Made by a program: the position numbers and the translations under genes. The notes under the pieces were generated by a model that was not told the origin of the DNA, did no database searches, and saw only the letters and a list, made by a program, of their open reading frames with translations. DNA of 64,000 nt from an uncultured virus (IMG/VR IMGVR_UViG_3300031521_000018) (Duplodnaviria; Heunggongvirae; Uroviricota; Caudoviricetes), in IMG/VR virus record IMGVR_UViG_3300031521_000018, positions 1 through 64,000 of that record; one strand, 5' to 3'. Of this stretch, positions 1 to 62,715 are shown one piece after another. Each line of letters opens with the position of its first letter. Within the stretch, counting starts at the first letter, position 1.

Positions 1-744
1 ACCAAATATTCTATTAATATCTGTAGATAACATTCCAGCAGTTACATAGGCATCTCGAAGGAGTTGCACATTTGCTTTTGAATCATTAGTCCATATAGGT
101 GTTTGTATAGATATATTATTAAATGAAAATATACAATCCGATGGAAATATTGTATATTTAAATGGAATGCCATCGACTTGAACATAAATACTATTAAAAC
201 TTTTAACAATAATAGTATTTAAAACCCAACCTTCTCTAAATGCACTAACATCATCTAAAACTGTACAATTAATTAAACTTGATTTACTAGAATAATTACC
301 ATTAACATATTTTTTAAAAAAAGTATAATAACATATTAACTGCTCTACGTTAGGTAAATCCTGCATAAAATGTACTCTTGTTAAAAAAGAGGTATAATTA
401 GGATTAAACATCTGTTTAATAGTATCAACTTTTAAATTAGCTAACCTATTAGTAGAAAATGTATAGTTAGAACTTAGTAATATCTGGTTACTATCATCTC
501 CCATTATAACTAAATAATTAGAAAATAACTCATTAATTACTCCACGAAAAACACAATATCTCATTCCACTTTTTTGTCCAGCTCTGAACATTCCTTTAAA
601 TGGATGTTCTCTTGTACCATCCCCCGAAAAATCATCACCAACATAAGTATGAATAAATACAGTATTAGTATTATCTAATAACTCTCCTTCACCAATAAGG
701 TCATAATTAATAGCATAACGAAGTTTAAATAAATTTGAACTCAT
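1..744 (-). CDS. Partial (runs off window) beta-helix/tailspike-like virion protein
   Basis: Manual translation from ATG 744: MSSNLFKLRYAINYDLIGEGELLDNTNTVFIHTYVGDDFSGDGTREHPFKG. The GDD-x-GDGT-x3-PFK motif resembles the N-cap of right-handed beta-helix (DUF1565-like) proteins. It is in an operon with fibre-like genes. Confidence 0.55.
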   Translation of the reverse strand, partial: MSSNLFKLRYAINYDLIGEGELLDNTNTVFIHTYVGDDFSGDGTREHPFKGMFRAGQKSGMRYCVFRGVINELFSNYLVIMGDDSNQILLSSNYTFSTNRLANLKVDTIKQMFNPNYTSFLTRVHFMQDLPNVEQLICYYTFFKKYVNGNYSSKSSLINCTVLDDVSAFREGWVLNTIIVKSFNSIYVQVDGIPFKYTIFPSDCIFSFNNISIQTPIWTNDSKANVQLLRDAYVTAGMLSTDINRIFG

Positions 745-887
745 AGTAATTTATTTAAAGGTAATTGATTTAATACTTTCTCAAATTCTTGTGCATATTG
801 AATAGTTTTAAATGGAAATTCAAGAGTCCCATTTTCAATAGTTTCAGTAGATTTTGGATTTATAAAAAATATATTAGTTATTTCCAT
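741..887 (-). CDS. 48-aa mini-protein made of a beta-helix N-cap-like motif
   Basis: MEITNIFFINPKSTETIENGTLEFPFKTIQYAQEFEKVLNQLPLNKLL*. Its TGA overlaps the next ATG (ATGA at 744-741). It is below the ORF-track cutoff. Confidence 0.55.
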   Translation of the reverse strand: MEITNIFFINPKSTETIENGTLEFPFKTIQYAQEFEKVLNQLPLNKLL

Positions 888-889
888 AA

Positions 890-1147
890 TTATTTAATTT
901 TTAAGTAGAAGTCAGAACAAGCCCAATTACTTTGATCTCTATAAATATATTCAGGTTGTACCTGAATAGTAAATTCTCCAACAACTACAGTATAACTTTG
1001 TGGTCGATTAAATCTATCCAAGTAATCAGGAACTAACTTATCATTAATAAGAATATTTACATTCTGATTATACCAGGCTTGAAATTCAGTTGTTTGTTTT
1101 GAAAGGTTTTGATTTTCATCAAATTCTACAATATCATTTATTTTCAT
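890..1147 (-). CDS. Hypothetical protein (fibre operon)
   Basis: 85-aa ORF tightly packed between co-oriented genes. Confidence 0.6.
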   Translation of the reverse strand: MKINDIVEFDENQNLSKQTTEFQAWYNQNVNILINDKLVPDYLDRFNRPQSYTVVVGEFTIQVQPEYIYRDQSNWACSDFYLKIK

Positions 1148-1153
1148 ATTATA

Positions 1154-3589
1154 TTATGTTAGAATAATTACTGCATTAGCATTATTTAGACCTGCTTTAA
1201 TAAGAACATCATTAATTATTAGTTCTTGTCCAGCAAGTAGAATTATACCTATAATTGTAGTTTGGTTATAAGTAGTAGTTCCTATTGTTACAGAAATTCC
1301 ATTACAGTTAGAAGCTAAATTTATTTCTGTAATAGTTCTATCTTTAGTATTAGGATATAATTGTGGAAGTATCATTCCATTAGCTCCATTTTTACTTACT
1401 GCAATTTTTATAGATGAATCTCCACTACTTGGAGGAATGGCAGCAATAGCATCATTTACATATACCTTAGTAGCATATTCACTAAGTGCTAAATTAGGTA
1501 TTTGTGTAAAATATTTAAACCAAATAATTTCTGAGTTTCCATTATAACTTTGGTCATTTATTGTAATAATATTATCTACTAATGATATAATAGGAATTGA
1601 TTGAAATACCCCATCGTTTGGAAAGTGTATATTTAAAATACCTTCTTTAGAAATAGGTGGATAACTTAATCTCATCACTGCATCCACACCTGGAGTTCCA
1701 GACACATAGGTAGCTAACTCATCAATAATCATAGTATCTTGTCTACCCATTAATTGACCATATTCAAATACAGCTTTGGCAGAAGCATATTGTAAATCAG
1801 TGGAGGTTGAAGATACTACAATAGCTTTATTAGATACATCTTCCTTAGCAGAGTCGTGGTGTATAGTTCCAATTTTTTCAAATGCTACTGTGCTTGGGTC
1901 AAATCCATCATATATATTTTCATAAGCCCCATCTCCTTCAACACGTACTGTGTTTAAAGTTATACCAAGAACTACCAATTTTACCAAATTATAAGAGCCT
2001 ATTTTTACAATTTTTGAATATACTCCATTTGAGTAATCTTCCTGTTCTGAAAGTAAAAACAAATCACCATCACTTAAATCATCTATAATCGTACTAGTTG
2101 CACGAAATGTATTATTTGTTGATGGTACGAGAGTAATGTTTTCTTTTAAAATTGCTTTTACAGATATATCTGAGTAATTAGGAATTTCAGGTATATCTAC
2201 AACAGTTGAATCAATAGTCCATGTACCTTGAGTATAAATAGCAAAAACTGTATTGCCTGCGGGAATTAATATACCATTAAACGTTATAGGATTTGATGTT
2301 ATAGATATAATAAAAGTTACCGATTTTGCAGTATCACCCAATGACGGAAAAATTACACTTGTACCATCTACATCAGCACTTATTTTAAAATTTTCGGCTG
2401 TACTTACATTAACTGTATAATTTAAATGACCTAAAATAAGTTTTATTTCCTCGGCTTCTACAGGAATTATTGCGGGTTGTGCAGTACCATAAATTGTAAA
2501 TTCTGGCTTTGGGTCATTGGGTGCTGAAACGTTTACAGTACGATAATAAATTTTATCCATTGTATCAACCCTTTGCTTAACATTAGGTGCTACAAATTGT
2601 CCTATATAAGTTCCACCCAAGCTTCCAATATTTCGGTAATTTCCCGAATTCAAGAATGTATCAAAGAAAGCTAATGTGTTTGCTGTTATAGTATCAGTAC
2701 CCCCAATTTCAAACAATTTACTACCATTCCACATATAATTTTTGGAGTTATATATGTAAATAACACCCGATAATGGGATAATTCCTATTGGAGGATTTCC
2801 ATTAACATGGACTCCAAATTGAAATTGTCCACCACCTAGTTGAGCCTGATAAATTAAGTTTGTGGTAGAATCATAGTAAAAATGATTTGTACTTGAGTAT
2901 GTTAAATGTGGCTGATCTGTTATAGATTCAAGTGTTACCTTACCAACTTTGTTTGACAGATTTACTAATAGTTCATTTATAGAGCCAACAACAAGCTTAG
3001 AAACAGTGTTTAATGTTTCATCTATTTTGTCTTGTTTATCAGACATGTTTGCAACACTATTTTCTATAGATGTAAATTTGGATAGGTATGTTATTATGGT
3101 GTCACCTGATAGATTTCCACTTTTATATATTTTTTTAGTTTCAGAATTATAAATTACATTTCCACCCTCTGTTGATAAAAGTATAGTTTCTATTACGTTT
3201 TTACTAGTTATAGGTGTATAAGCAGTTGGAACATCAAATTGAGTACCCGAAGCAGAATTTATAAAATGTATAGTAAGAAAAACACTTCTCCCGAACTTAT
3301 TATAAGATATAAATTCAGAGCCTTGTATAATAGTTGAGTTTTTAACGGAATCATCAATTATTATTCTACCATCTCGTCCTGGCTTTCCTATATTATTGGT
3401 TGATACATCGCCTTTGCTTATTCGTTGTTCTATTTTTTTGGTAATAAAATCAACGAAATTAATGTCAGCTATTTGAGATAACGATGAAAAATTTGTATTT
3501 ATTATCTCAATAGCCTGTTCAAGTGTGGCATTTTGAGGCATTTCAACAATATCAATATGGTCTATTCCATTTAAATCGTATTGTGTCAT
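1154..3589 (-). CDS. Putative tail fibre / modular virion protein
   Basis: 811 aa, Thr/Ser/Gly/Asn-rich and modular. It has fibre-like segments (DKQDKIDETLNT..LVVGSINEL; KEDVSNK..QYASAKAV; YATKVYVNDAIA) and a short GKPGRDG. Confidence 0.55.
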   Translation of the reverse strand: MTQYDLNGIDHIDIVEMPQNATLEQAIEIINTNFSSLSQIADINFVDFITKKIEQRISKGDVSTNNIGKPGRDGRIIIDDSVKNSTIIQGSEFISYNKFGRSVFLTIHFINSASGTQFDVPTAYTPITSKNVIETILLSTEGGNVIYNSETKKIYKSGNLSGDTIITYLSKFTSIENSVANMSDKQDKIDETLNTVSKLVVGSINELLVNLSNKVGKVTLESITDQPHLTYSSTNHFYYDSTTNLIYQAQLGGGQFQFGVHVNGNPPIGIIPLSGVIYIYNSKNYMWNGSKLFEIGGTDTITANTLAFFDTFLNSGNYRNIGSLGGTYIGQFVAPNVKQRVDTMDKIYYRTVNVSAPNDPKPEFTIYGTAQPAIIPVEAEEIKLILGHLNYTVNVSTAENFKISADVDGTSVIFPSLGDTAKSVTFIISITSNPITFNGILIPAGNTVFAIYTQGTWTIDSTVVDIPEIPNYSDISVKAILKENITLVPSTNNTFRATSTIIDDLSDGDLFLLSEQEDYSNGVYSKIVKIGSYNLVKLVVLGITLNTVRVEGDGAYENIYDGFDPSTVAFEKIGTIHHDSAKEDVSNKAIVVSSTSTDLQYASAKAVFEYGQLMGRQDTMIIDELATYVSGTPGVDAVMRLSYPPISKEGILNIHFPNDGVFQSIPIISLVDNIITINDQSYNGNSEIIWFKYFTQIPNLALSEYATKVYVNDAIAAIPPSSGDSSIKIAVSKNGANGMILPQLYPNTKDRTITEINLASNCNGISVTIGTTTYNQTTIIGIILLAGQELIINDVLIKAGLNNANAVIILT

Positions 3590-3602
3590 ATTAATAATTA
3601 AT

Positions 3603-6600
3603 TTATAATAATGTTAAACTATACACCAAACTCAATGATTGGTCTGTGTATTTATTTAGTATTATTTCCGAATATCCATTTCCGAAGTCTGTTTTTACAG
3701 AATAATCTGTAATTTGTTTGTAATTTGTTTTAGTTAAGTATGATTCAGTTACTTGACTTATATTTACATTGCTTAAACTATCATTCCTTGTGTAAATTTT
3801 TATCAAATTTATAGAATATAATTTAAATATTTTATCAATAATCAATCCAATAAATTTTTCAAAGTCTGAATTTATTATTGAATATTTGAATATTTGGTCT
3901 TTAATTGTGTCATACATTATATCTTTTAACAACATTTTGTAATTTATACGTATGTTTAATTGATTATTAGCTGAATCTTTGGTATAGTACAATGCCGATT
4001 TATCTATTAAATTTGTCTGTGATGAAACACTTTTAAATGATGAAGAAAATATATTAAACGGCAATTTTATATTTACAGAATTTAAAAACGTTTTTAAAAA
4101 ATCAAATTCCTGTGAACTTGAAATATTAACAAATTTGGATGTATATTGGTTGTCGTAAAGTGTATATTGGTTATCAAATATATTTTTGAATATGTCTATT
4201 TTGAATCTGTCTATGGAATTGTTTAACTCATATTTTTGATTATTTTTGATATTGTATCCATACAGAACATAAGGAAGGTATTTGTCGATTTCAAGGTTGG
4301 ATTCTAGCAAAGTTTGTGAATTACCAATCCTGCTAATATCATTAGAATAAACCGTTGGCTCAAGAATAATCTTGGAATCCAATTTTAATTTTGATTCCTC
4401 TATAGTTTCGCTAGCTATTTTTGTTTTGAAATTTATAACATCAAAAGTTTCGGGGTAATATTCACCCGATAACCTTACAAAATCATATTTATTTTGCTCT
4501 AATTTGTTAGATTTGGTATTGTAAGTTACAGGTAAGTTAAGCTTTGTATGTTGAATCATAAGCAGCTTATTTCCGTCATTAATTACCGAATTATTGATAT
4601 AGCTTTTATTTTCTTGTATTAATCTAAAAAACGATGATGCTGTTAACAGTTGCTGTAATTTTAAATAAATGTCCTGACCACCGCCTATAATCAAGATATA
4701 AGCCAAATCTGTAATATATTGATTATCCATTCCAAACACCACACCTGTACCCTTGGCATATGAATTAACAAATTCTGATAGCTGATATTTATAATCCTCT
4801 AACCTTGTTATTATATATTCCAAATTGTTTATGTGTATATCATTCATAGTCATCATATTCTCAAGTACTGATCTTGCTATTGGTGCTATATATTGTTTAC
4901 TTTCATCTATTAATATTGATAAGTCTTGTGTTGACTGTAAGATGTTTCTAAGGTACAGTGGGTCTGTTTTTAATTTCAAAGCTAATTCTTGTTCATCAAA
5001 GTTAAAAATAGACCTTAATTTATACCCAAATGTTTTTGTCACAGCCACATTATCAATGAATATATTGTATGGTAATGTTGATAAGTCAAACGGTTGACCA
5101 TAAGCTTTGTTTGTCTGATCATTTATTATATTATTACCAACAACTGAAACCAAAGACCGCATCATGTACATATAAACATAATCGGGTCTTTGGTTACCAT
5201 TCTTATCTATAATTTTGTAGTCATTGATTTCAATATTTATACACATACATATTGATTTGTATGTGTGATTGGTGGATATATCAACGTCAAGAAGTCCATT
5301 ACCAACAGATTTTTTTACGTTTAATATAACAGCAAATTTATAATCTGAGTAATCAATACCATCTGAAACAATCCTATATTTTATGCCGTTAAAAAACACA
5401 TCATATTGATTATCATATGTTTTATTAAAAGTCGACCATCTTTGTTGATAATTAACATCATACATTACATCATCAATATTGGCGGAATATACAGTGAAAT
5501 ATCTAGTGAAATAGTCAACAGTATTTACCTTGTGTAGTTCTGATTCAAAATATTTGTCGAAATAGTATTTGTTATTCTTTATATCATCAGGCAAAATTAA
5601 TTCAGGATATGATGAAAGATAAAACCACTCATTTGTAAAATATTCCTGATTTGGTGCGAACATATCTATTGCAGGACATTGATTTGTTTCACCAAATGCG
5701 GGTGATATATTAAGCCTATAATTATCGCCTCTTACATCCTTTTCTTTCATAGACCATCTATTTATAATAAAAGGTAATAATTTGCTATCCTCATATATTT
5801 TATTAACGTCTTCTTTCATTCGTTTGTATTCGTTTATATAATCGTATGAAAGAATATACTTTATTTTATCCTCTTGAACAACAACAGTTTGTATAAAATT
5901 TTGTGCACGTTTAACGTAATAATCGTCATACGAACCACCATTGACTACATCATATGGTATCCATTGATTTGTTGATTCATTAATTACATCATCAGCCAAA
6001 GTAAGAGTCCTAACAACATAGGGAACGGATGTAGCATCCTTATAAACATTGAGTTGGTATGAAAACTTAGTTGAATCGTTATTAAGACCATAAAACCCCG
6101 AAAAATTATAAATTTCAGAATCATTATAATATTTCTTATTAACTATAATTGGAATACCATCTACAACAGAAAAATGTGATTCCTCGGCTGTGAATTCAAC
6201 AAATATTCCTGATGTACTTGTATCGGCTTGATACACAATACCGTTATGATTTATGCTAGTTGGAAGTGTATTATATGAGAATAGGTAATATGTTTCTCCA
6301 ATAACAAGTTGACCATCAACAACATTAAAGTATTTGTTATATTCATTCAAATGTGGATTTTTATACTGTTCCTCAAAATCAGTAAAAAATGATTTTATTG
6401 GTAACATATCAAAAGCACACCTTTTGAAAATTTTATCTTTATATAAGTACACCTTATTTTTTTGTGTAAACAGAACTTCATCTGATGTATTACTTACCGT
6501 AACTGATATGTAATTATCCAATTCAAGGAAATTTATAATTTCATTATCATCAGATGAATTAACAAAATCCAAATCAAGGAAATTTGAAAAATTTTTTATC

Positions 6601-8270
6601 CTTGATAATTGACCTGACATAGTTTGTATATAAGATGATTTATCAAACAGAGATTTATCTGATTTGCTTATTAAGAACCTATGATTTTTAGACTTTGCTA
6701 TTCCTGTAAAATGAGAATTCTCTATATATATTGAATTTTCACCAAATTGACATGAATATTTAAGCTCTAAATCAATATCGGGAGAAAAAGTTAAATAGAA
6801 GTAAATCTTATTACTATTCCAAAAATATTTAACGTTGCTTATACCAATGTTATTTAAAACGTTATTTAATGTTTTACACATTCTTTTAGCAACCTCAGAA
6901 ATAGAGCCTATCGGGTTGTAATAATTGTATATAGAACCATATTTAATCCAATTTTCATACAAATAATCACCCTGAGATAAATTATCAAGTTCATCACCAA
7001 TTATGCTTGCTATATATTCACCATTTTTGAATATTTGTAATTCGTCACTAGATTTCAATTTATCTATAACTTCTAAACAAATTGAACTAACTCCATTCGA
7101 ATTTACTCTTTTTGATTGTATTGTGCTTATAAGTACAGGTGAACTATCAATTACAGTCTTTGGTTCTTTGGTATCGTTATCAATTATATGTAGTTCTTTG
7201 GTATAAACATCTCTTACATAATGTAATATATCCATTTCCTCTAAAACAGGCATTTTAATATTATCCTCAGATAATTCATTTACATAAAGACCAAAATATC
7301 TATTAAATTGATAATCATTAGATGTATTATCATCAAACAAAAATTCAAAATTTATAAGATTTGACAAACATATACCATTTCGCATAAATCCATCAGTTAC
7401 AAATCTATCAAATTTTGAAACCTCCATTTCTTTTTCCAACAGGTTTTCAAAGTTTTCTTCTACAGTTATTATTTCGCCTTTATCCTTAGAAATTCCTGTA
7501 TAATACAACCTTTTATCATTAAAGTCAACCCTTAATGGTGCTTCTGAAAATTTTGAATTGGATGTAAGTTTAGATAGATATGTTGAAATTGAAGAACCTT
7601 GAAAGTCAAATACCTTTACAATGTTTGACTTTTTAATGTATGAAGAAAATATATCCTGATTGATATCAATAACAGGTTCTATGTAATTTAGTACCTTGAC
7701 ATTTTTGGACTTACTTACAACATAGCTTTCCGATGTAGCCACAAAAATGTCTGAATGTTTATAGGTTATTCCGTTGGAAATTATATTATCATCCGATGTA
7801 GTAGACTGTATGATATATTTGTTACCTATAATTAGTGAACTTTGATTTATTTTTTCATCACCAATACCATCAACTTTGAATACAACAAGATATTTAGGTA
7901 ATATTTTCCCTATAAGTAATGGTGCAAATATCTTTAATTGCTCAGTATGTAATTTTGATGTACAATTATCAGTTCCGTATGAGTACAGCATATGAAACTG
8001 CTCAAGCAAATTTGTTTTTTGTGAATTTACATCATTTTCCTGAACATTATAAAATATATCATTTGGTATAGACTTGTATTTGTTGTATATATCATTAACA
8101 AATTCACCATCTTTATCTATAACAGGATTACTAATGATAGATGATTTCAATGTTTGATTTGCGGGTATTAATTCCAAGAATAATTTATCGGAAGAATCAA
8201 CAACAAGTTTTATGTTTCCTGTTAACCTAGCATTGGAACTCAACAGTAGCGATGATTTATTATCAAGCAT
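3603..8270 (-). CDS. Large virion structural protein (baseplate-associated, unknown family)
   Basis: 1555-aa ORF preceded by a TAAATAA late-type motif; heads the fibre operon; no catalytic motifs seen. Confidence 0.5.
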   Translation of the reverse strand: MLDNKSSLLLSSNARLTGNIKLVVDSSDKLFLELIPANQTLKSSIISNPVIDKDGEFVNDIYNKYKSIPNDIFYNVQENDVNSQKTNLLEQFHMLYSYGTDNCTSKLHTEQLKIFAPLLIGKILPKYLVVFKVDGIGDEKINQSSLIIGNKYIIQSTTSDDNIISNGITYKHSDIFVATSESYVVSKSKNVKVLNYIEPVIDINQDIFSSYIKKSNIVKVFDFQGSSISTYLSKLTSNSKFSEAPLRVDFNDKRLYYTGISKDKGEIITVEENFENLLEKEMEVSKFDRFVTDGFMRNGICLSNLINFEFLFDDNTSNDYQFNRYFGLYVNELSEDNIKMPVLEEMDILHYVRDVYTKELHIIDNDTKEPKTVIDSSPVLISTIQSKRVNSNGVSSICLEVIDKLKSSDELQIFKNGEYIASIIGDELDNLSQGDYLYENWIKYGSIYNYYNPIGSISEVAKRMCKTLNNVLNNIGISNVKYFWNSNKIYFYLTFSPDIDLELKYSCQFGENSIYIENSHFTGIAKSKNHRFLISKSDKSLFDKSSYIQTMSGQLSRIKNFSNFLDLDFVNSSDDNEIINFLELDNYISVTVSNTSDEVLFTQKNKVYLYKDKIFKRCAFDMLPIKSFFTDFEEQYKNPHLNEYNKYFNVVDGQLVIGETYYLFSYNTLPTSINHNGIVYQADTSTSGIFVEFTAEESHFSVVDGIPIIVNKKYYNDSEIYNFSGFYGLNNDSTKFSYQLNVYKDATSVPYVVRTLTLADDVINESTNQWIPYDVVNGGSYDDYYVKRAQNFIQTVVVQEDKIKYILSYDYINEYKRMKEDVNKIYEDSKLLPFIINRWSMKEKDVRGDNYRLNISPAFGETNQCPAIDMFAPNQEYFTNEWFYLSSYPELILPDDIKNNKYYFDKYFESELHKVNTVDYFTRYFTVYSANIDDVMYDVNYQQRWSTFNKTYDNQYDVFFNGIKYRIVSDGIDYSDYKFAVILNVKKSVGNGLLDVDISTNHTYKSICMCINIEINDYKIIDKNGNQRPDYVYMYMMRSLVSVVGNNIINDQTNKAYGQPFDLSTLPYNIFIDNVAVTKTFGYKLRSIFNFDEQELALKLKTDPLYLRNILQSTQDLSILIDESKQYIAPIARSVLENMMTMNDIHINNLEYIITRLEDYKYQLSEFVNSYAKGTGVVFGMDNQYITDLAYILIIGGGQDIYLKLQQLLTASSFFRLIQENKSYINNSVINDGNKLLMIQHTKLNLPVTYNTKSNKLEQNKYDFVRLSGEYYPETFDVINFKTKIASETIEESKLKLDSKIILEPTVYSNDISRIGNSQTLLESNLEIDKYLPYVLYGYNIKNNQKYELNNSIDRFKIDIFKNIFDNQYTLYDNQYTSKFVNISSSQEFDFLKTFLNSVNIKLPFNIFSSSFKSVSSQTNLIDKSALYYTKDSANNQLNIRINYKMLLKDIMYDTIKDQIFKYSIINSDFEKFIGLIIDKIFKLYSINLIKIYTRNDSLSNVNISQVTESYLTKTNYKQITDYSVKTDFGNGYSEIILNKYTDQSLSLVYSLTLL

Positions 8271-8295
8271 ATTTATTTTTGATTATTTAAAAGTC

Positions 8296-8332
8296 AAAGA
8301 CCATATACTTTTGGTTATAGTATACGGTCTTT
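8296..8332 (-). terminator. Intrinsic terminator after the ligase gene
   Basis: Minus strand AAAGACCGTATACT-loop-AGTATATGGTCTTT followed by GACTTTT. Confidence 0.6.
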
Positions 8333-8351
8333 TAATCTTTTAAATCGATTC

Positions 8352-10451
8352 TTAGAACAAAGATGTTTTATCGTTTTCTGTATTAATTATATTTTCTGCA
8401 GTAGGTTCAGTAGCTGTAATCCCCAACATTGTGTTGAGTTCCTGTTCATCTATTATTTTTATTCCCGCTTTTTCGGATTTAGTTACTTTTGTTGTAATAA
8501 CCAATTTATCTTTAACAACTAATGTAGTTATATCAAGCGAAAATGAATTCTTTATTTTGCCACCTCTTGAAACTATTAATTTTTCAGCTTCTACACTTCT
8601 AAAACCCGTAAAACAGAATTTTTGACCCATTAGTTCATCAGATATATCCCCTGTTTCAGACGAGGTATCTTCCTTTGATTCATTAATGTCATAAATATTC
8701 GCATACCATAAAACAAAAGGAATAATACCTTTGACAAAGATTAAAGCTGTTTTTTCAGCATATCCACCAACGTTTTTAATTTCATCAAGTGTTAAATTTC
8801 TCAATTTCTCAATATTGTTGAACGTGATGCCATATTTCTCAAGTACCCAAGATATTTTAGTTTCGGCAAGATTTGGAAATAAGTTGGTTGCCGACATAAG
8901 TAATGCCAAAGATGCATTATTGAATGCATTGTGAATTGATGAATATGTAATTTCTGCTTTCCTTTCACCGAAATTTTCAAACTTATTGAATTCAGATTCA
9001 GGTGTGCGAAGTATGGTGGTGATAAAATCAAGGTAATATTGGCTGTATTTATAAATTTCAACTTGAAATTGCCTTATTAATTTTTCCCCAATATTTTTAG
9101 CTTTAATTTGGGTAAAAAAGAATTCAACACGTTTGTGGAATATTTCAGGACAATTTTCGTTGCTACATCTCATTGTAACCTCATTTTCATTATAATTTAT
9201 GTGTGTATCACAATAAGGACATTTACTAGGTAATATATCCGCTATAAGCATAGATTCATAAGAATCAAATACCTCATTGCTCTGATATGTAAGGACTTTA
9301 TAAACCCTCGGTATTATTTGACCACCTCTTTTAATAATAATATCAGCACCAACAGAGATTTTGCTTTTACGAATGAAATCAATGGTATCAACAAAGATAT
9401 TCTTACCACATTCAGCACCATCAAGCATAACCAAATCTGTACTTATGCATGGGTTAAATTGTCCATCTTTATCAATAGGAAATTGTATTGAACGTATTTT
9501 TACTGTTGCTCTGTCACCGAATGTATCCTCATTCTTATAGGCAACAGTAAATTTAGGATTACCTTTAGTATCATATCCAAGCTGATTTCTTATTTCGGCA
9601 TCATCTATATCAATTACCAGTCCATCAATTACGAAAATTTCAGACCATTGCTTATAAAGTTCATAAAACCTATCCTCAAGAACTTGCTTATCATAATTTT
9701 CAGAGATAATAATCTCGATATAAGGAACTTTATAAATATGGTTAAATTGTGAATTTAAATAATCAAGTATATGTGTCTTATTTTGTTCTTTAAGTGATTT
9801 ATCATAAACACCATACCTAACATAGTAAATATCTTTAAGCGATTCAGTTGATTCAGAAAGTGGGTTTAATTTACCCGCAACCATATTCCTTACATTTTTA
9901 TATACATCAGAATATTTTGGCTTGAATATGTCGTTTGGCATTATAAATTCACCAATATGATAAAATTCATCAAACACAGCTGAATCGGAAATGATATTTT
10001 TGTTAATATGGGTAAAATGATTGTGTACAGGATAAGCCTCGTTATCCTTCCCTTTAATGGTTACTATTCTATGACCTTGCTCAATTGTATCTTTTTGGTT
10101 ATTATTAAGAATCCCCGACACCCCGTCATATTTTGGTGTTGCTATTAATTTTTTCCCAAGTAGATTGTTTTTGACAATCCATTTCATAAAATCATCCATT
10201 GTGGTAATTTTATTAATGCCTGTCATTGGCAAAAGATTTTCTACTTTTTCACCATTTAACTTAAGGTATTGTACCTTACCATCTATGGAATTTATGTGTT
10301 GACCTGTAATTTCTACATATTTATAGTAAAGTTCATCAAATACTTTATCAGAAATTTCAGGCAAACCCATCCGATATAGATTGTTTAGACGAATTAATTC
10401 ATTCTTAAGACTTGATAAATTTTCAAATTGTTTATCTCCTATTGTTATCAT
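8352..10451 (-). CDS. ligA: NAD-dependent DNA ligase
   Basis: Domain Ia (Y-x5-ISDKVFD), adenylation motif PKYDG, NVRNMVAG, IDGLVI, Zn finger CPYC..CSNENCP, HhH repeats and a C-terminal BRCT (GQKFCFTG..GGKI). Confidence 0.95.
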   Translation of the reverse strand: MITIGDKQFENLSSLKNELIRLNNLYRMGLPEISDKVFDELYYKYVEITGQHINSIDGKVQYLKLNGEKVENLLPMTGINKITTMDDFMKWIVKNNLLGKKLIATPKYDGVSGILNNNQKDTIEQGHRIVTIKGKDNEAYPVHNHFTHINKNIISDSAVFDEFYHIGEFIMPNDIFKPKYSDVYKNVRNMVAGKLNPLSESTESLKDIYYVRYGVYDKSLKEQNKTHILDYLNSQFNHIYKVPYIEIIISENYDKQVLEDRFYELYKQWSEIFVIDGLVIDIDDAEIRNQLGYDTKGNPKFTVAYKNEDTFGDRATVKIRSIQFPIDKDGQFNPCISTDLVMLDGAECGKNIFVDTIDFIRKSKISVGADIIIKRGGQIIPRVYKVLTYQSNEVFDSYESMLIADILPSKCPYCDTHINYNENEVTMRCSNENCPEIFHKRVEFFFTQIKAKNIGEKLIRQFQVEIYKYSQYYLDFITTILRTPESEFNKFENFGERKAEITYSSIHNAFNNASLALLMSATNLFPNLAETKISWVLEKYGITFNNIEKLRNLTLDEIKNVGGYAEKTALIFVKGIIPFVLWYANIYDINESKEDTSSETGDISDELMGQKFCFTGFRSVEAEKLIVSRGGKIKNSFSLDITTLVVKDKLVITTKVTKSEKAGIKIIDEQELNTMLGITATEPTAENIINTENDKTSLF

Positions 10452-33610: not shown

Positions 33611-33645
33611 AAAATAGTCCGAGAAACAATTTCTCGGACTATTTT
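33611..33645. terminator. Bidirectional terminator between convergent genes
   Basis: AAAATAGTCCGAGAAA-CAA-TTTCTCGGACTATTTT. Confidence 0.8.
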
Positions 33646-33672: not shown

Positions 33673-34971
33673 TTAGTTAATATCATCAGGCAAATTGTCA
33701 AAGTTTAAATCACCAAAGCCTTTTTGATCAGTTTGTGTAACTGATTTTACAGCAGTTTCTACAGGTTTTTCATTTGCGGCAATAGTTTCTACAGGATTTG
33801 CTTCTATAACGGTTTCTACAGGTTTTTCACTTGCGGAAACAGTACCTGCATTGTCTTTCAATGACTTGAATTTCGATGTAGTGTCAACAGATGCTTTATC
33901 AGTTGTTGTTTCCACAACTTTTGGTTGAGTTGTTGTTTCCACAACTTTTGGTTGAGTTGTTGTTTCCACAACTTTTGGTTGTTCGGCAACTTTTGGTTGT
34001 ACCTGTGTAGTTCCCTGTTGTAATCCTACAGCCTGTTGACCTTCGGCAACTGTTGTAACATTATTGTATTCGGGTACGTACTGAGTTCCAAAAACTTCAA
34101 AATACAATTCACAGAATTCTTTATAATACTGTTCACCAAATGCTATTTTAATGCAATTGATTAACAATTTAGCATCTTCTGCTGTTGTTTCTTTGTAGTA
34201 CGTTTGTGACAGGTCAGGGGAATTTGTCTTTAAAAAATCAAAAACTTGTTTTCCTGTTTCTTGGTTAAATTCTTTGATTGTAGTTTTACCACAATCAAAT
34301 GAAATACCACAAAGACCATCATTGAAAGAACTTTGTTCATATGTTGGCATATTTTGATTTCCCTCTGATACCACAATAGTTAAATCTTTACCATTAATAA
34401 GGTCAAACGGCACAATCGGCTTTCTTTTGAGAATTGGGTCACCCTTTAATAATTGATCAAGTTTAACGTTAAGGATTTTGCCATATCTCAAAATTTTGAT
34501 TTTACCATTCAATTCAGGGTGTTGTGGGTCATCATAAATCAAAAACAGGGAATAATTGTAAGTATTGCGTTTAAGCACTTCCAACCGTTTTGATAATTGT
34601 ATTGGGGTGTTTTGGTCGTAATTCTTACCTTTATCGTACACATGCTTCATATATGCTGCAGTAGCTAAATCCTTGAGTTTAGGATTATTACTTGGTGCAT
34701 CTACATAAATTCGGGCTTTAGGGTCATTTGGGTCAGGAAGATAATACATATGTTTGGTAACACGGTCACGCCTGATTTCTCCACAATTAACATCGGGAAC
34801 TAATCTGCCTGTTACTACATAGCGACCATCTTTTACCTTTTCATCGTCAAGTTTTAATGCCAAAAAATCCTCATTAAAATTGCTTGATGTTGGTTGTTCA
34901 AAATTTTCTGCTGTTACCGCAAAAATTCCGCCAAATTCAAAATTTTCAGTTTGTTCAATTTTTTCACTCAT
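33673..34971 (-). CDS. Single-stranded DNA-binding protein (gp32-like)
   Basis: LIYDDPQHPELNGKIKILRYGK, PFDLINGKD and PTYEQSSF; long low-complexity linker; acidic tail DLNFDNLPDDIN. Confidence 0.8.
   Translation of the reverse strand: MSEKIEQTENFEFGGIFAVTAENFEQPTSSNFNEDFLALKLDDEKVKDGRYVVTGRLVPDVNCGEIRRDRVTKHMYYLPDPNDPKARIYVDAPSNNPKLKDLATAAYMKHVYDKGKNYDQNTPIQLSKRLEVLKRNTYNYSLFLIYDDPQHPELNGKIKILRYGKILNVKLDQLLKGDPILKRKPIVPFDLINGKDLTIVVSEGNQNMPTYEQSSFNDGLCGISFDCGKTTIKEFNQETGKQVFDFLKTNSPDLSQTYYKETTAEDAKLLINCIKIAFGEQYYKEFCELYFEVFGTQYVPEYNNVTTVAEGQQAVGLQQGTTQVQPKVAEQPKVVETTTQPKVVETTTQPKVVETTTDKASVDTTSKFKSLKDNAGTVSASEKPVETVIEANPVETIAANEKPVETAVKSVTQTDQKGFGDLNFDNLPDDIN
33901..33981. repeat. 27-bp coding tandem repeat x3 (QPKVVETTT)
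   Basis: AGTTGTTGTTTCCACAACTTTTGGTTG repeated three times in the SSB linker. Confidence 0.9.
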
Positions 34972-35045
34972 TTCAATAGTTTTTTAATTATACAATAGTT
35001 TTCAAAAATTCAAAATATTTTATACCGTTACAAACCAAAGATTTT

Positions 35046-35172
35046 CAACACTACATGGATTTCATACCATGATAAAAATTCTATATATCGTGACTTATTG
35101 AATTCTGCTAGGTTCGGGTATCAATCACACTTCCCTAGCTAGCCGTTCTAATGAGTATTGAACTATAGTGCC
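35046..35172 (-). ncRNA. tRNA-like cloverleaf with an expanded anticodon loop and long variable arm
   Basis: Acceptor GGCACTA/TAGTGTT+G, linker TA, D stem GTTC/GAAC, anticodon stem GCTAG/CTAGC (27-nt loop), variable stem AGAATTC/GAATTTT, T stem CATGG/CCATG (loop TATGAAAT). Confidence 0.65.
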
Positions 35173-35183
35173 GAAAATTTTGG

Positions 35184-36782
35184 TTATATTAAGATGTCCT
35201 CGACTTTCATCGCTATATTGTCGGTAAGTAAAAACATTGTAGCTACGGAAATAGCATTTTCTATACAATTCCTTATTACTTTTGTTGGGTCGATAATACC
35301 ATCCTCGACAAGGTTTGCTAATTCACCATACATATTAATACCATTATTGTCATCTAATATGTCATCTATAATCAGCTTATCAATATCGGAAATACACAAG
35401 TTGCTTAACAATTTTCTTTTTATTGATTCCGATGCCGACTTAATCAAATTGCCTGAAATTGAATAAGGTGGTAATTGATAAGCAGCCTTTATGTATGATG
35501 CACCCGCACCAACCGATACACCTTCCTCAATAGATGATTTAACGGCAGCTATTGCATCATCAATTCTATCCTTTACCTCATAAATTTCTGTATCGGAATT
35601 ACCACCGATTTTAATCGTAGCTATATTTCCCTTTGCAAAAGATAGCAAATTACGTTTCCATTGAATAGCCTCATTCTCTTCGGGTGAACCTGTTTCAATC
35701 ATAGACTTTATATTTTCCTCTATTTGACAAATTTTTGTATCAAGATTAGGCTTATTAATGTCATATATTTGAATATTTGTTTCATCTTTACTCACTACAA
35801 TTTTTTGAGCAGAGCCAATAAACTTAGAACTGAATTCAGCTAGCTTAGTACCAGACTCAATATAAAAAGGTGTTGCTAATGTAGCGGATGCAATCATTGA
35901 CAAATAATCTTTTCTTCTTTCACCGTAAAATGTTGGTTTTATCAAACATATTTTCATCTTTTGGCTCATATGATTGGCAATCATAGTCTGAACAGCTTCA
36001 CCCTCAATATTCTCACCAATTATAAGTAATGATTTATAATTGGTATTGGCTATACTAAGAATTTTTAACATATCAGAGCCTTTTGAAATGTTGTGGTCTG
36101 TTATAATTATACCACAATCTGTTAGCTCAGAAATCATCTTATTAACATCTGTCATGAACATATAACTAGAATATCCCGAAGCTATTTTAATCCCGCTTTG
36201 TATAGTTATTGATGTTTCAGTTGATGGTGATGGTTCAACCATTATAGTTCCATGTTCATTTCCGAATTTATCATATGCCGATGCAATCAAATCGGATATT
36301 CTAACATCTCCATTTGTAGAAATCATGGCAATGTTTCTAATATCCTTATTTGTTTTTGAAATTATTGAATGATCCTTAATATATTCAATCATCAAATCCT
36401 TTGATTTGTTTAAATCATCACGGAGTTTATGAACATTAAAATCAGGATTTGATTTCAAAAATTCATTTATCTCTTTCATAAGTGCATAAGCAAACACAAC
36501 CGTAGATGTAGTGCCATCACCCGCATTTAATGCCGTTCTCATTGATGATTGCTTGAGCAGGTTACACCCTATGTTTTCCCATTCATTTTCAAGTTCTATA
36601 AATTTAGCAACAGTGACACCATCTTTTGTGGATTGTATGATTCTTTCATTTAAATGCTTGAGTAATACGTTTTTGCCTCCAGGACCTAGTGTAGATGATA
36701 CAATATCACATAATTGTTTTGCACCATAAAGTATCGTATCTCTTGCCTCAGCACCTGTTTTTATTTGTACTTTGTCATTCAT
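35184..36782 (-). CDS. groEL: Chaperonin GroEL-like
   Basis: TLGPGGKNV, TKDGVTVA, AGDGTTS, EVKDRIDDA, EEGVSVGAG and GIIDPTKV; lacks the GGM tail. Confidence 0.95.
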   Translation of the reverse strand: MNDKVQIKTGAEARDTILYGAKQLCDIVSSTLGPGGKNVLLKHLNERIIQSTKDGVTVAKFIELENEWENIGCNLLKQSSMRTALNAGDGTTSTVVFAYALMKEINEFLKSNPDFNVHKLRDDLNKSKDLMIEYIKDHSIISKTNKDIRNIAMISTNGDVRISDLIASAYDKFGNEHGTIMVEPSPSTETSITIQSGIKIASGYSSYMFMTDVNKMISELTDCGIIITDHNISKGSDMLKILSIANTNYKSLLIIGENIEGEAVQTMIANHMSQKMKICLIKPTFYGERRKDYLSMIASATLATPFYIESGTKLAEFSSKFIGSAQKIVVSKDETNIQIYDINKPNLDTKICQIEENIKSMIETGSPEENEAIQWKRNLLSFAKGNIATIKIGGNSDTEIYEVKDRIDDAIAAVKSSIEEGVSVGAGASYIKAAYQLPPYSISGNLIKSASESIKRKLLSNLCISDIDKLIIDDILDDNNGINMYGELANLVEDGIIDPTKVIRNCIENAISVATMFLLTDNIAMKVEDILI

Positions 36783-36867: not shown

Positions 36868-37152
36868 CTATTTTTTGGTTATGATTAATAAAATATCACC
36901 CTCTTCCATAACCCTATATTTTTTGCTTTCGATAGTTAACTGAGTACCTGAAAATCTATTAAACATTACTCTTTTACCAACAACAGTATTTTCACCTACA
37001 CTTTCACCTACACCGACAATTTCACCAAGAGTTTGGTCTGTATCATCAATTTTTATAGCTATCAATCCGCTTTCGGTTTGTTCAATTTGTTCTTCAATTT
37101 TAACAAGTATTCTACTTTTAATTACATCTACTATTAATTTTTCACCTTCCAT
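36868..37152 (-). CDS. groES: Co-chaperonin GroES
   Basis: RILVK..TESGLI..GEIVGVG..VGKRVMFNRFSGT..EEGDIL. Confidence 0.92.
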   Translation of the reverse strand: MEGEKLIVDVIKSRILVKIEEQIEQTESGLIAIKIDDTDQTLGEIVGVGESVGENTVVGKRVMFNRFSGTQLTIESKKYRVMEEGDILLIITKK

Positions 37153-39499: not shown

Positions 39500-40588
39500 T
39501 CAAGATGCATTGGAAAGCCGATTATTTGTAAAGTGTGATTGATATGATTTTAATGACTTCATAACATCAGATGGCAAAAGTAATTGTTGATTGGTATCAA
39601 AACTATTTCCATACTCTTGCTCAAATGCTTCCTCAGAACCTATGTTGGCTGTTTCCTCTTGTTTCCATTTATCATCTCTACCCTCAACATCAAACCAATC
39701 TACACGTATAGGATTGAAATAATTTTTACCAAGTAATCCATCAGTGTACAATTGCCAAAATAAATTTCTGCCTCTTGCTGTAGATGTAATTATCATCTTT
39801 GCTGTTTTTGACGATGACATTGTTGGAAAAATAGTTTGATAGAATATTTTTAATACCTGTGGGTCAATCAGTGCAAATTCATCACAGTAAAGTATACCGT
39901 TAACAGTAAGACCTGCACCCGCTTTCTCTGTTGCTGTTTCACCTTTTATTGAGCAGCCATTATCATATATTTTCCTCTTTTGATTATCAACACATATACC
40001 AAGTTTCATATAAAATGGCAAATTGTCGTATATTGTATCTATCTTTTCTATAAGTTCTTTAACTTTATCATCGGTTGCCGAAGTACATGCGACACCTTTA
40101 TCATAATTGGTAAGTAAATACCACATTATAAAAATACCTGATGTAATAGAATTATGGCTCAGTATATCATTAGAAAAATAACTCATTTCTCCTGAACCAA
40201 CTGTAACATCAAAAGTAAATTGTCTAGGTAATTTTTCTACTTTTACAACACGTGATATTCCTTGTTTTGTGATTAAAAATGTCTGCCTTGTTACGTTATT
40301 AGCATCAATTATCTGCATATTTGAATCATAAAACAAATGATTTACAGAACACTTTACAAAGCATCCATTTTTAGTAGTTATTTTAAGTATTTCGGCATTT
40401 GTCTTAATATGGACAGCCGATAAATATTGACCACCCTTTATACCGTTTACCAATAAATTATCTTTAGGAATAGAGGAACTAATTATACAGTCTTCCTCAA
40501 CTTTATATTTCCACAGATTATAATTTAAAAATATAACTATTTTTAATATAGCATTTAAAGTTTTTTCCAAAATTTCTAATAGTCCCAT
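39500..40588 (-). CDS. Split-intein C-fragment fused to the terminase large subunit ATPase core
   Basis: Likely start is ATG 40588, 4 nt after the upstream stop. After SHN comes S-ITSG (the Ser of Walker A GKS), Walker B ILYCDEFA, motif III IITSTARG, VDWFDVEGRDDKW and FEQEYG. RQxGK and the nuclease domain are absent. Confidence 0.88.
   Translation of the reverse strand: MGLLEILEKTLNAILKIVIFLNYNLWKYKVEEDCIISSSIPKDNLLVNGIKGGQYLSAVHIKTNAEILKITTKNGCFVKCSVNHLFYDSNMQIIDANNVTRQTFLITKQGISRVVKVEKLPRQFTFDVTVGSGEMSYFSNDILSHNSITSGIFIMWYLLTNYDKGVACTSATDDKVKELIEKIDTIYDNLPFYMKLGICVDNQKRKIYDNGCSIKGETATEKAGAGLTVNGILYCDEFALIDPQVLKIFYQTIFPTMSSSKTAKMIITSTARGRNLFWQLYTDGLLGKNYFNPIRVDWFDVEGRDDKWKQEETANIGSEEAFEQEYGNSFDTNQQLLLPSDVMKSLKSYQSHFTNNRLSNAS
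40151..40588 (-). mobile_element. Atypical (long, 146-aa) IntC of a split intein at TerL Walker A
   Basis: Block B KCSVNHLF, block F FTFDVTV..SYFSNDI, block G LSHN|S; no block A and no endonuclease. Confidence 0.85.
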
Positions 40589-40592
40589 TGTG

Positions 40593-41726
40593 TTAGTCCA
40601 TAAAGCTGCTAAATATATCCTCAGCGTTTTTTTCAACAAGTATTTCTTCGTCTTTAGATGATTCACTTTGAGTGTGAATTTTAAACGATGTTTCATACCT
40701 GTTTCTTTCATTATCTTTGATATTATTTCTTAAATTCTGATTGGGCGATAGAGGTATTAAATCATCAGCTTCAACAACCTCAGAAAGCTCCATTATTAAT
40801 TTTTTCCTATCATTGAAAACAGGTGTATCAGGTATTATAACCTCACCTTCCTCTATTCCTGACTGATTAACAAATTCACCATTAACATAATCTTTCTTGA
40901 GTTTTTTGAAAGATTCCTCGACATCAGACAAGTATTCCCTTTGATATTTACTCAAGGCTAATTGTGACATTTGTATTTTAGACAGTGATTCAATGTTTTT
41001 AGCTGTAGGATTTTTAATTACTTGTTTAAAAAATTTCTTAAGCACAAGCTGCGAAATCATCATTTGAGTATGAATCATTTGTATAGAATTCTCCTCAAAA
41101 TATAATTTATTTTTGAAATACGGAAATTTTTCTATAACACCTTTTTCGATATAAAGTTCAGCTATAGAGCCTAATAAGCTTTTTGCCTCTGTAAGTGCTA
41201 TAGATGATGCCTGTATGTATTTTTCCTCAGCTTGTAATACATCCTCATCATGTTCTTTTTCGTGTTCTTCATCTTCATCTTCATCATCAAATTTGGGTAG
41301 ATCACTGAAATTTGACTTTCTTTTTGGTTGACTTTTTACCAATGATGGGAGATATTGCTCAAATGTCCTTTCAAGTTGTTCAATAACTATATCCTCTACA
41401 TCATCCTCTGTATTTTCTATAACTTCCTTATTTTTGCTCATTAGTTTAGCATATTGTGAATATGCTAAAGCTCTTGAATCAAATAACAAGCTTTTTTCAT
41501 CAGCTAATAAATTACCTGATAAATCCGTGAAATCTATTCTCCATTTGCCCGAATTATCAGTATAAAATTGAGCCGCTTGTCCTTTATCAGGAAAATTAAA
41601 TTTTCGTTTAGATGCTTTAGACCTACCGTTAAATATATTAACAAAATATCCAACCGTGTCAGTTTTATACGGTTGTGATAATACTTGTTCAATAGGTTCT
41701 GTTGGTATTTTAATTATATTTGCCAT
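40593..41726 (-). CDS. Hypothetical helical protein (possible small-terminase-like)
   Basis: 377 aa with an acidic linker and a coiled-coil region; immediately upstream of the TerL fragment. Function is inferred from position only. Confidence 0.4.
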   Translation of the reverse strand: MANIIKIPTEPIEQVLSQPYKTDTVGYFVNIFNGRSKASKRKFNFPDKGQAAQFYTDNSGKWRIDFTDLSGNLLADEKSLLFDSRALAYSQYAKLMSKNKEVIENTEDDVEDIVIEQLERTFEQYLPSLVKSQPKRKSNFSDLPKFDDEDEDEEHEKEHDEDVLQAEEKYIQASSIALTEAKSLLGSIAELYIEKGVIEKFPYFKNKLYFEENSIQMIHTQMMISQLVLKKFFKQVIKNPTAKNIESLSKIQMSQLALSKYQREYLSDVEESFKKLKKDYVNGEFVNQSGIEEGEVIIPDTPVFNDRKKLIMELSEVVEADDLIPLSPNQNLRNNIKDNERNRYETSFKIHTQSESSKDEEILVEKNAEDIFSSFMD

Positions 41727-61595: not shown

Positions 61596-62075
61596 ATGAT
61601 GTACTTCAAAGCACTGATTAAAGAAGAAACCAAAACGGACTTCGGAATAGTACCAAAGACACAAGAATATTATATTCCCGCACTAAATTATACAGATGCT
61701 GAAAATATATTCAAGGAACTTATAAATCTTGATATGATATGTAAAGAATGTATATCTATTGAAAACAGAAAGCAACTTGAATTCAAAAAGATATTGAAGG
61801 AAGAAATTGAGGGTGTTGTTGGTGATGATAGCGATTTTTATTACAAAGTAGCCGTTAAATTTAGTACGGGTGAAGGTAATAAAACAGCAACCAACAATTT
61901 TTATGTTTCAAATGATAGCTGTGATGCATATAAAAAAATATCTGAATATATTAGCAAGGTAGGATATATGTCTGATAGTGAGATAATATCAATAGTTAAA
62001 AAGGATAGAATTAAAACAATCTTCGAAATGACTAACGAGGATTATAAATTGGCGTATGATAATATTGTTAAATAA
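61596..62075 (+). CDS. DUF4494-like protein
   Basis: Duplicated pattern YFKALIK..EYYIPALNYTDAE / FYYKVAVKF..SEIISI resembles the Bacteroidota DUF4494 family. Confidence 0.55.
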   Translation: MMYFKALIKEETKTDFGIVPKTQEYYIPALNYTDAENIFKELINLDMICKECISIENRKQLEFKKILKEEIEGVVGDDSDFYYKVAVKFSTGEGNKTATNNFYVSNDSCDAYKKISEYISKVGYMSDSEIISIVKKDRIKTIFEMTNEDYKLAYDNIVK

Positions 62076-62715
62076 TTTAAAAATATGTGTATATAAGACC
62101 TCTATTAAATTAATAGAGGTCTTAGAATATTTTATGATTTATAAGGAATATAGGTCTTATAACATAAGTAAATTTGGGTATTTTGTAAACATAGATGAAG
62201 ATCAAGAGTCAAAAATAACCCATGTTCATTACACAGGTATAAAAAGATTATACAAACTTGAAACATATGGTGGTAAAACCTTATATGCCACCCAAGACCA
62301 TATACTTCCTATATATCAGGTTACAGAGGTGTTAAAAGGAAATGATAAATTTTTTTCTATTGCTGATCTCAAACACAAAATTGATATGCATACAGGCAGC
62401 AAATATAGTGTTATAAATTCAGGTGGATTCTGTGAGGAGGTAAAATCGATAGAAAAAATATTGGGATTTCATAGAGTATTTGACTTAACTATAAGTAACA
62501 AAATGCATGTATTCGTTGCTAATGGTATCAAAGTGCATAACTGTGTAACTGCCGATACTGGTATAGAAATACTCAACAAAGAAACCTCAGAATTCAATCA
62601 CATTCCAATATTTGAACTGTATTATTCAAACATAAAATCTAAAAATTGGTTAACCAAATTTGAATATTGGTTAACAAAAACAATTTATAAAATAAATAAT
62701 AAAAACAAAGTGTAA
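62056..62715 (+). CDS. Extein-less IntC-IntN fusion (permuted/tandem split-intein protein)
   Basis: Block B YATQDHILP, block F RVFDLTI..HVFVANG and block G KVHN are followed at once (Cys163, 62542-62544) by block A CVTADTGIEI..HIPIFELYY and a 57-aa IntN tail. Confidence 0.85.
   Translation: MIILLNNLKICVYKTSIKLIEVLEYFMIYKEYRSYNISKFGYFVNIDEDQESKITHVHYTGIKRLYKLETYGGKTLYATQDHILPIYQVTEVLKGNDKFFSIADLKHKIDMHTGSKYSVINSGGFCEEVKSIEKILGFHRVFDLTISNKMHVFVANGIKVHNCVTADTGIEILNKETSEFNHIPIFELYYSNIKSKNWLTKFEYWLTKTIYKINNKNKV

Follow-up and report, generated by a model that had tools for sequence, protein, structure and literature searches.

A tRNA-derived cloverleaf within a long predicted closing helix between groEL and ssb of an uncultured T4-like phage

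Enlarged tRNA-like RNAs are already known from phages T4 and T5. In T5, rna1 (T5s03; NC_005859.1, 30501-30644) and RNA2 are each annotated as 'tRNA-like stable RNA with unknown functions'. We found T5 RNA1 in 487 of 50,697 phage records, and among nine aligned RNA1 genes 11 of the 33 base pairs carry double-sided changes. An excerpt of PMC3014915 gives the role of T4 RNA C, or species 1 RNA (rnaC; NC_000866.4, 70908-71046), as unknown, and an excerpt of PMC12685909 records a convergent change in rnaD among evolved lines. A literature search, with older subscription papers and supplements outside its range, returned no paper on the element described here or on the function of T5 RNA1. The element has the same body plan as these RNAs and occurs in an unrelated phage; it lies outside a tRNA cluster, is without elbow bases and sits inside a long closing helix.

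The stretch of DNA analysed, hereafter the window, covers 64 kb from the start of a virus record of 125 kb, which is 29% GC and 83% complete. The genome encodes a T4-like portal, a terminase, a split DNA polymerase, groES, groEL and a gp32-like ssb, and the only RNA genes called by ARAGORN across its 125 kb are a tRNA-Met and a tmRNA near 98.5-99.1 kb. The element is flanked upstream by groEL (35184..36782, minus strand; phrog_5725, PF00118), which is itself preceded by groES (36868-37152), and downstream by the gene for the gp32-like single-strand DNA binding protein (ssb; 33673..34971, minus strand; phrog_224). The host is guessed to be a member of the Bacteroidota, since a near relative of the phage encodes a type IX secretion tail domain.

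Several other features of these genomes were observed along the way. The tRNA-Met and the tmRNA, whose tag ends in AFAA, occupy an 885-nt stretch without a long open reading frame (G000:C1:98290-99175; L025:3290-4180), and both are absent from the near relative. A perfect 16-bp hairpin at 33611-33645 of the window, between the converging ssb and 543-aa genes, is terminator-like on both strands. An Acb1-like 2H phosphoesterase, possibly an anti-CBASS protein, is encoded at L162:3042-3578 on the plus strand (about 104042-104578 of G000) and also in the near relative. Intein-like segments are present at 39500-40711 and 62056-62712 of the window; the terminase reading frame has an N-terminal stretch outside its profile match, and a separate 219-aa frame gives a weak match to intein splicing domains.

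The tRNA-like core spans 35046..35172 on the minus strand between groEL and ssb, wherein tRNA position 1 corresponds to 35172 and the discriminator G73 to 35046. Read from the sequence, all 21 of its 21 stem pairs are intact (19 Watson-Crick and two G-U) and the spacing of the four stems is canonical, as the earlier note had described for this strand. The 7-bp acceptor stem consists of five Watson-Crick pairs along with G1-U72 and G2-U71, and is followed by U8 and A9. The D arm (35145..35163, minus strand) has a 4-bp stem and an 11-nt loop that includes A14, A15 and A21 and is without GG. G26 sits between the D stem and the 5-bp stem of the anticodon arm (35107..35143, minus strand), whose 27-nt loop starts with C32 and U33, ends with A37 and C38, and encloses an inner hairpin. 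The variable region (35072..35106, minus strand) is 35 nt long and forms a hairpin, wherein a 7-bp base stem with one G-U pair supports a loop that carries GUCAC at 35094-35090. The T arm (35054..35071, minus strand) has a 5-bp stem with G53-C61 and an 8-nt loop in which G replaces C56, and which retains U54, U55, A58 and U60 provided that one extra A is allowed. Four pairs in the predicted stems are not Watson-Crick, and every one is a G-U pair on the groEL/ssb strand.

The invariant tRNA nucleotides that are retained thus include U8, A14, A15 with U48, A21, G26, C32, U33, A37, G53-C61, U54, A58, U60 and G73. Those absent are G18, G19, C56 and the CCA end, the first three of which we take to be the bases that form the elbow between the D and T arms. 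Features of a canonical tRNA that the element does not have are a 7-nt anticodon loop, G18 and G19, and UUC in a 7-nt T loop; among 212 reference tRNAs, 201 have GG and 190 have TTC. The unusual lengths of the anticodon loop and the variable region, as well as the missing D-loop GG, TTC and CCA, had been reported in the earlier note and are confirmed from the sequence, and the distance from the core to the ssb ATG (34971), given there as about 75 nt, is 74 nt.

Two features are missing from the earlier note. One is the 8-nt length of the T loop; the other is an extension of the acceptor stem by 13 pairs, interrupted by one bulge, into the sequences that flank the core, which creates a closing helix of 20 bp. 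The 5′ arm of this extension (35173..35185, minus strand) begins within the groEL stop codon, of which it includes the final two bases, and its 3′ arm (35033..35046, minus strand) is made of G73 and the trailer, with a bulged C at 35040. The longest acceptor extension found among 374 phage tRNAs is five pairs. The fact that the extension pairs are all Watson-Crick, with no G-U, means that the extension does not by itself prove selection at the RNA level, and it could be an inverted repeat that matters as DNA. On its own, the 127-nt core shows no folding advantage over its shuffled versions (z of -1.2), whereas with the closing helix the value reaches -3.1 to -3.7, and thus the folding signal above shuffles is due to the closing helix. 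In the predicted fold, both large inserts (in the anticodon loop and the variable region) form hairpins, and position -1, G73 and the trailer are all paired. Additional tertiary contacts were sought with little return: a 4-bp pairing between the D and T loops is at chance level (p of 0.50), and pairing between the anticodon insert and the variable loop gives a p of 0.06.

Between the end of the closing helix and the ssb start lie 61 nt, and the stretch downstream of the helix is unstructured in the centroid fold. This stretch includes an A/T-rich spacer (34972..35024, minus strand) that is common to the near relative and opens with the motif TATAAAATA, which is a possible, although weak, promoter between the element and ssb. 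A sequence scan of the element for sigma-70 promoters or terminators gave nothing above shuffles, and the same scan found no terminator between groEL and ssb.

Established tools do not recognize the element. ARAGORN makes no call on it, even at a very low threshold with introns allowed that yields 198 calls in the genome, and Rfam, including RF00005, gives no match, such that the relaxed tRNA finder and covariance models to which the earlier note had looked do not lend their support. A strict descriptor found the element as its sole match in the 125-kb genome and matched none of 100 simulated genomes, although it was shaped on the element itself and missed the tRNA-Met of the same genome. A relaxed descriptor, which recovers five of eight T4 tRNAs, matched only the tRNA-Met and the element, and produced one match, with a mismatch, in 30 simulated genomes.

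Because the descriptors were shaped on the element, we built a log-odds tRNA model trained on 212 tRNAs that do not match the search patterns, with penalties for long loops and missing invariants. Its loop-length priors were chosen by us, and T4 and T5 tRNAs belong to the training set and so are not independent controls; the tRNA-Met of this phage lies outside that set. The model picks exactly the ends of the element, with a score of 20.6 bits that is second in the genome after the 78.2 bits of tRNA-Met. The best unrelated site in the genome scores -14.6 bits and the best site in the 167-kb genome of the near relative -9.4 bits. Genome-wide maxima for 35 simulated genomes have a mean of -8.8 bits (standard deviation 4.6) and a best value of 9.2 bits, and the highest value among 599 sequences with an intact closing stem and a shuffled interior is 5.1 bits. 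We conclude that the cloverleaf is real, tRNA-derived and above chance, and these scores and shuffles bear out the earlier description of a tRNA mimic that is not a working tRNA as written.

The ancestry of the element was examined by asking which phage tRNAs share its features. The combination of its D arm with G27 is present in 92 distinct phage tRNAs (seven uncalled), wherein 59 of the 85 called are specific for Arg and none for Ser. Its D arm along with the CU...AC loop ends occurs in 111 distinct tRNAs (15 uncalled) drawn from 120 of about 1,000 stretches; here, 64 of 96 called tRNAs are specific for Asp and, again, none for Ser. Among 16 Ser tRNAs, neither C38 nor G2-U71 was found and a 4-bp D stem occurs in three, and G2-U71 is present in 44 of 70 Asp tRNAs. 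A naive Bayes classification based on acceptor pairs, which are features not used in these search patterns, ranks Leu, Arg and Glu above Asp and places Ser 13th of 17, and Arg comes first when the T stem is added. From these comparisons, the ancestor was likely a class I tRNA that was Arg- or Asp-like, and not Ser-like.

The earlier note had matched the element to tRNA-Ser. The long variable arm and G73, which are serine identity features according to an excerpt of PMC9976931, are indeed present, although the arm of 35 nt compares with at most 23 nt in the Ser tRNAs parsed; the D arm, position 38 and the acceptor pairs are not of the Ser type, and that part of the match does not hold. On the strength of those two features SerRS binding is conceivable, but charging with serine would be unlikely given that G73 is predicted to be paired and CCA is absent. 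The proposed excision of 20 nt that leaves CGA is likewise undermined, since it is one of several 7-nt registers that leave CGA, AGA or AGG, and after it the element would still be without G18, G19, C56 and CCA. The recurrence of GUCAC in the inserts (p of 0.013) was noticed after the fact and depends on an Asp ancestry that the naive Bayes analysis does not confirm.

All other copies that we found belong to the same phage and are identical or differ by one D-loop change. In one such record (G003), the single difference in 20,000 bases is this D-loop variant at 35154, and one event says little. The near relative (G001), wherein ssb is 64% and groEL 76-77% identical, has a groEL-ssb spacer of 80 nt that shares its last 53 nt with that of our phage, is without the element, and has no tRNA gene. 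In nine loci from a distant group the order pol, groEL, ssb is conserved, the spacer measures 80 nt and no tRNA-like score exceeds -5.1. Nothing like the element was found in the whole of the near relative, the whole of one distant genome (G005) or parts of two others (G006 and G007). Because the near relative and the nine distant loci have only an 80-nt spacer, the element appears, most simply, to have been gained between groEL and ssb in this phage lineage. The idea raised earlier of a structured ssb leader as a conserved feature is weakened accordingly: relatives keep the gene order, the near relative keeps the end of the spacer, and none has the element.

Pattern scans of viral contigs (one of which covered about 120 of 170 stretches) and of bacterial genomes revealed no divergent homologue, only near-identical copies or noise, and a blastn search of 50,697 phage records gave the same outcome. 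Searches that started from proteins extended no further than this phage, one near relative and one distant group. As separate observations on these relatives, the near relative encodes RtcB (L017:539-1750, plus strand) while itself having no tRNA gene, and this protein is about 90% identical to many database proteins among the best 120 of 7,902 matches, which suggests recent transfer. A conserved gene of tRNA-like form, whose anticodon arm is shortened, lies in the tRNA cluster of the distant group (L320 near 9860, minus strand; L321 near 4372, plus strand).

We tentatively propose that the element encodes a non-decoding, structure-constrained, tRNA-shaped RNA, which is set free when the closing helix is cut. 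In this proposal, a cassette derived from a class I tRNA, with four stems intact and three loops enlarged, would have been gained between groEL and ssb, and its product is predicted not to decode. The element is probably co-transcribed with groES-groEL, since it lies on the same strand as groES-groEL-ssb and no terminator was found before it. Helices of 20 bp are of the size used by RNase III, and a cut by an enzyme of this type in the closing helix would release a separate small RNA and at the same time part the groEL message from the ssb message. The released RNA, presumably stable, would function in the manner of the T5 tRNA-like stable RNAs; through its tRNA shape it may engage a tRNA-binding protein of the host, either as a ligand or as a decoy. 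RNase III takes part in T4 tRNA synthesis, as the title of a work cited in PMC4810235 states. With its leader, G73 and trailer predicted to be paired and its elbow changed, the element looks poorly suited to the enzymes of tRNA-type maturation. The RNase P/Z processing signal put forward in the earlier note thereby loses ground, given the predicted pairing of position -1, G73 and the trailer. If the RNA is made and selected, then the shape of its arms would matter, rather than tRNA processing signals or decoding.

The chief alternative, possible although in our judgment doubtful, is that the element is instead a young, decaying pseudo-tRNA, wherein an acquired tRNA gene received insertions and lost its elbow bases, and the inverted repeat is an insertion scar. 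Consistent with decay are the restriction of the element to one known phage species, the unexceptional folding of the core alone, the failure of any Rfam or RNA1 model to accept it, and the occurrence of the sole change in 20,000 bases of G003 in its D loop. Moreover, G18, G19 and C56 are the only G or C nucleotides among the strict loop invariants, and so A/T-biased drift in a genome of 29% GC could explain their loss. However, such drift should break the stems as well, and C56 became G, which is not a change toward A/T. We modelled neutral decay as the survival of stems given the loss of G18, G19 and C56, with a flat prior on divergence, and the probability that 21 of 21 pairs remain intact is 0.0013; among real class I tRNAs, 239 of 314 have all 21. 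With divergence set to its most favourable value, neutrality reaches a joint likelihood of 5e-5 versus about 6e-3 with stems protected (the latter is the product of two values from the decay model), for a best-case comparison of about 100 to 1 for protected stems. These figures take no account of ascertainment, and because scans notice only intact copies we discount the odds for protected stems. That both large inserts fold as hairpins also speaks against decay, and on balance we consider structure-level selection on the element to be fairly probable.

Release of the RNA is not needed if the element acts only as a cis-acting mRNA structure, which protects the 3′ end of groEL or nucleates SSB binding on the A/U-rich leader in the manner of the gene 32 pseudoknot of T4. 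This is in line with the 61-nt distance from the closing helix to the ssb start, with the unstructured stretch that comes after the helix, with the T4 pseudoknot about 67 nt upstream of gene 32 (in an excerpt of PMC3014915), and with the overlap of the 5′ arm and the groEL stop codon, where a terminating ribosome could open the helix. We consider it unlikely as the whole explanation, because the near relative and the nine distant loci have no element, a cloverleaf with tRNA invariants exceeds what such a role needs, and the weak promoter motif, if real, lies between the element and ssb. Far less probable is an intron-containing tRNA-Ser (CGA) that is spliced like the anticodon introns of Lak phages and rejoined by RtcB. 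The loop does retain C32 U33 and A37 C38, Lak phage tRNAs do have introns (excerpts of PMC6784885 and bioRxiv 10.1101/356790), and the near relative encodes RtcB. Nevertheless, the body is not a canonical tRNA, unlike that of an insert-bearing tRNA at another locus (L109), the serine signatures fail, and a bulge-helix-bulge at 37/38, traced by hand, forms two of four pairs. A Pfam search of 122 open reading frames of the 83%-complete genome found no RtcB, RNA ligase with a known tRNA role or CCA enzyme, and gave one match of the 2H-phosphoesterase/Acb1-like type. An insert of 20 nt that ends in C does not fit a group I intron, and no intron family in Rfam matches the element. A chance cloverleaf within a hairpin-bounded insert of other origin would agree with the absence of calls by ARAGORN and Rfam, and yet is scarcely credible when the element scores 20.6 bits against best values of 5.1 among 599 interior shuffles and 9.2 among 35 simulated genomes.

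Having weighed these alternatives, we retain the tentative proposal of a released, tRNA-shaped RNA, for which the phage RNAs introduced above are the natural comparison. T5 RNA1 and RNA2 are, like the element, cloverleaves (125-144 nt) in which a structured insert replaces the anticodon loop and the variable arm is long, and they score 34.3 and 14.1 bits, respectively, in the log-odds model in comparison with 20.6 for the element. RNA1 and the element also share G26-GCU at the start of the anticodon stem, a combination found in two of 212 tRNAs. A 10-nt run in the element (35113..35122, minus strand) recurs unchanged on the 3′ side of the insert in the anticodon arm of five of nine aligned RNA1 genes; a shared run of this kind was reached in 238 of 400,000 shuffles, which is suggestive although after the fact. 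Likeness across the whole arm was matched by 18-256 of 20,000 null trials for five RNA1 members (p of 0.001-0.013), by 562-8,543 for the other four (0.03-0.43), and by 432 for the unrelated L109 tRNA (0.02). The variable arm has no likeness to that of RNA1 (p of 0.2-0.8). A covariance model built from nine close RNA1 sequences aligns the arms of the element in register, and its score of 9.5 bits (E of 0.46) ranks fourth in the window and below several ordinary tRNAs. On these sequence comparisons, remote kinship or convergence with RNA1 may be entertained, although we regard it as rather doubtful.

A bolder version of this idea seems quite improbable to us. It holds that the element, although its T4-like phage is unrelated, belongs remotely to the RNA1 kind, that its elbow was rebuilt (C19-G56 replacing G19-C56) and its second arm displays the Asp determinants GUC-AC, and that a ribosome ending at the groEL stop codon would open the helix, such that a decoy RNA is freed and the ssb message is uncoupled. 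If true, the shared 10-nt run would mark a functional site of a widespread and unexplained class of phage RNAs. If the RNA of the element is made and under selection, the run would also point to a site worth mutating in T5, a phage that can be cultivated. The element itself, from one uncultured species, is a lead and not a result.

Four further enlarged cloverleaves were recovered among 240 phage tRNA loci. Three of these (L174:1-112, minus strand; L125:342-444, minus strand; L208:221-328, plus strand) are 103-116 nt long, adjoin phage tRNAs and were missed by ARAGORN, and two pass RF00005. At L109 (294-412, plus strand), a relative of the L104 tRNA with anticodon CUA carries a 45-nt anticodon-loop insert that folds as an acceptor and T arm ending in ACCA and resembles the tRNA-in-tRNA arrangement of Lak phages. 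In Lak megaphage tRNAs generally, as in the element, an insert occupies the anticodon loop of a phage tRNA frame; however, according to an excerpt of PMC6784885, those inserts are recognized by comparison with copies of the same tRNA that have no intron, whereas the element has a non-canonical body and scans of bacterial genomes found no intron-less copy. Bacillus cereus tRNA-Other, a pseudo-tRNA that an excerpt of PMC3399842 describes as proposed to be a tRNA-like element inside a larger RNA, is similar in that respect, and differs in being chromosomal, located at a genomic island and apparently of ordinary tRNA length; this comparison is by description only. Two other classes were considered and rejected. 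YrlA RNAs have a permuted arm order, and for a Y RNA of this kind or a tmRNA there is no Rfam match, the arm order of the element is canonical, and no TROVE match, as a Ro60 partner would give, was found in the 122 open reading frames. For a MITE or retron-like element, only a single copy is present and the Pfam search found no reverse transcriptase in the same 122 frames of the 83%-complete genome.

The operator of T4 gene 32 is similar in position, as it also places a folded element about 60-70 nt before the start of a gp32-type gene with an A/U-rich stretch in between (excerpt of PMC3014915), but it is a pseudoknot rather than a cloverleaf, and the element is not conserved in the relatives of its phage. 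T4 RNA C is closer in form, with about 140 nt, a T arm, and long arms that replace the anticodon and variable loops. It differs from the element in its canonical T loop, the lack of a D stem in its fold, its site in a tRNA cluster and the absence of sequence likeness. Indeed, T5 RNA1 and T4 RNA C both combine a canonical T loop with a site in a tRNA cluster, as do three of the four further enlarged cloverleaves, and the element has neither. T5 RNA1 moreover has a Leu-type D arm with GG and wide conservation, whereas the element has a class I D stem without GG, an 8-nt T loop and a 20-bp closing helix, and is solitary and known from one species. Although the RNA1 family model does not accept the element, its architecture has a precedent, and the described RNAs to which it stands closest are those of the T5 RNA1 kind.
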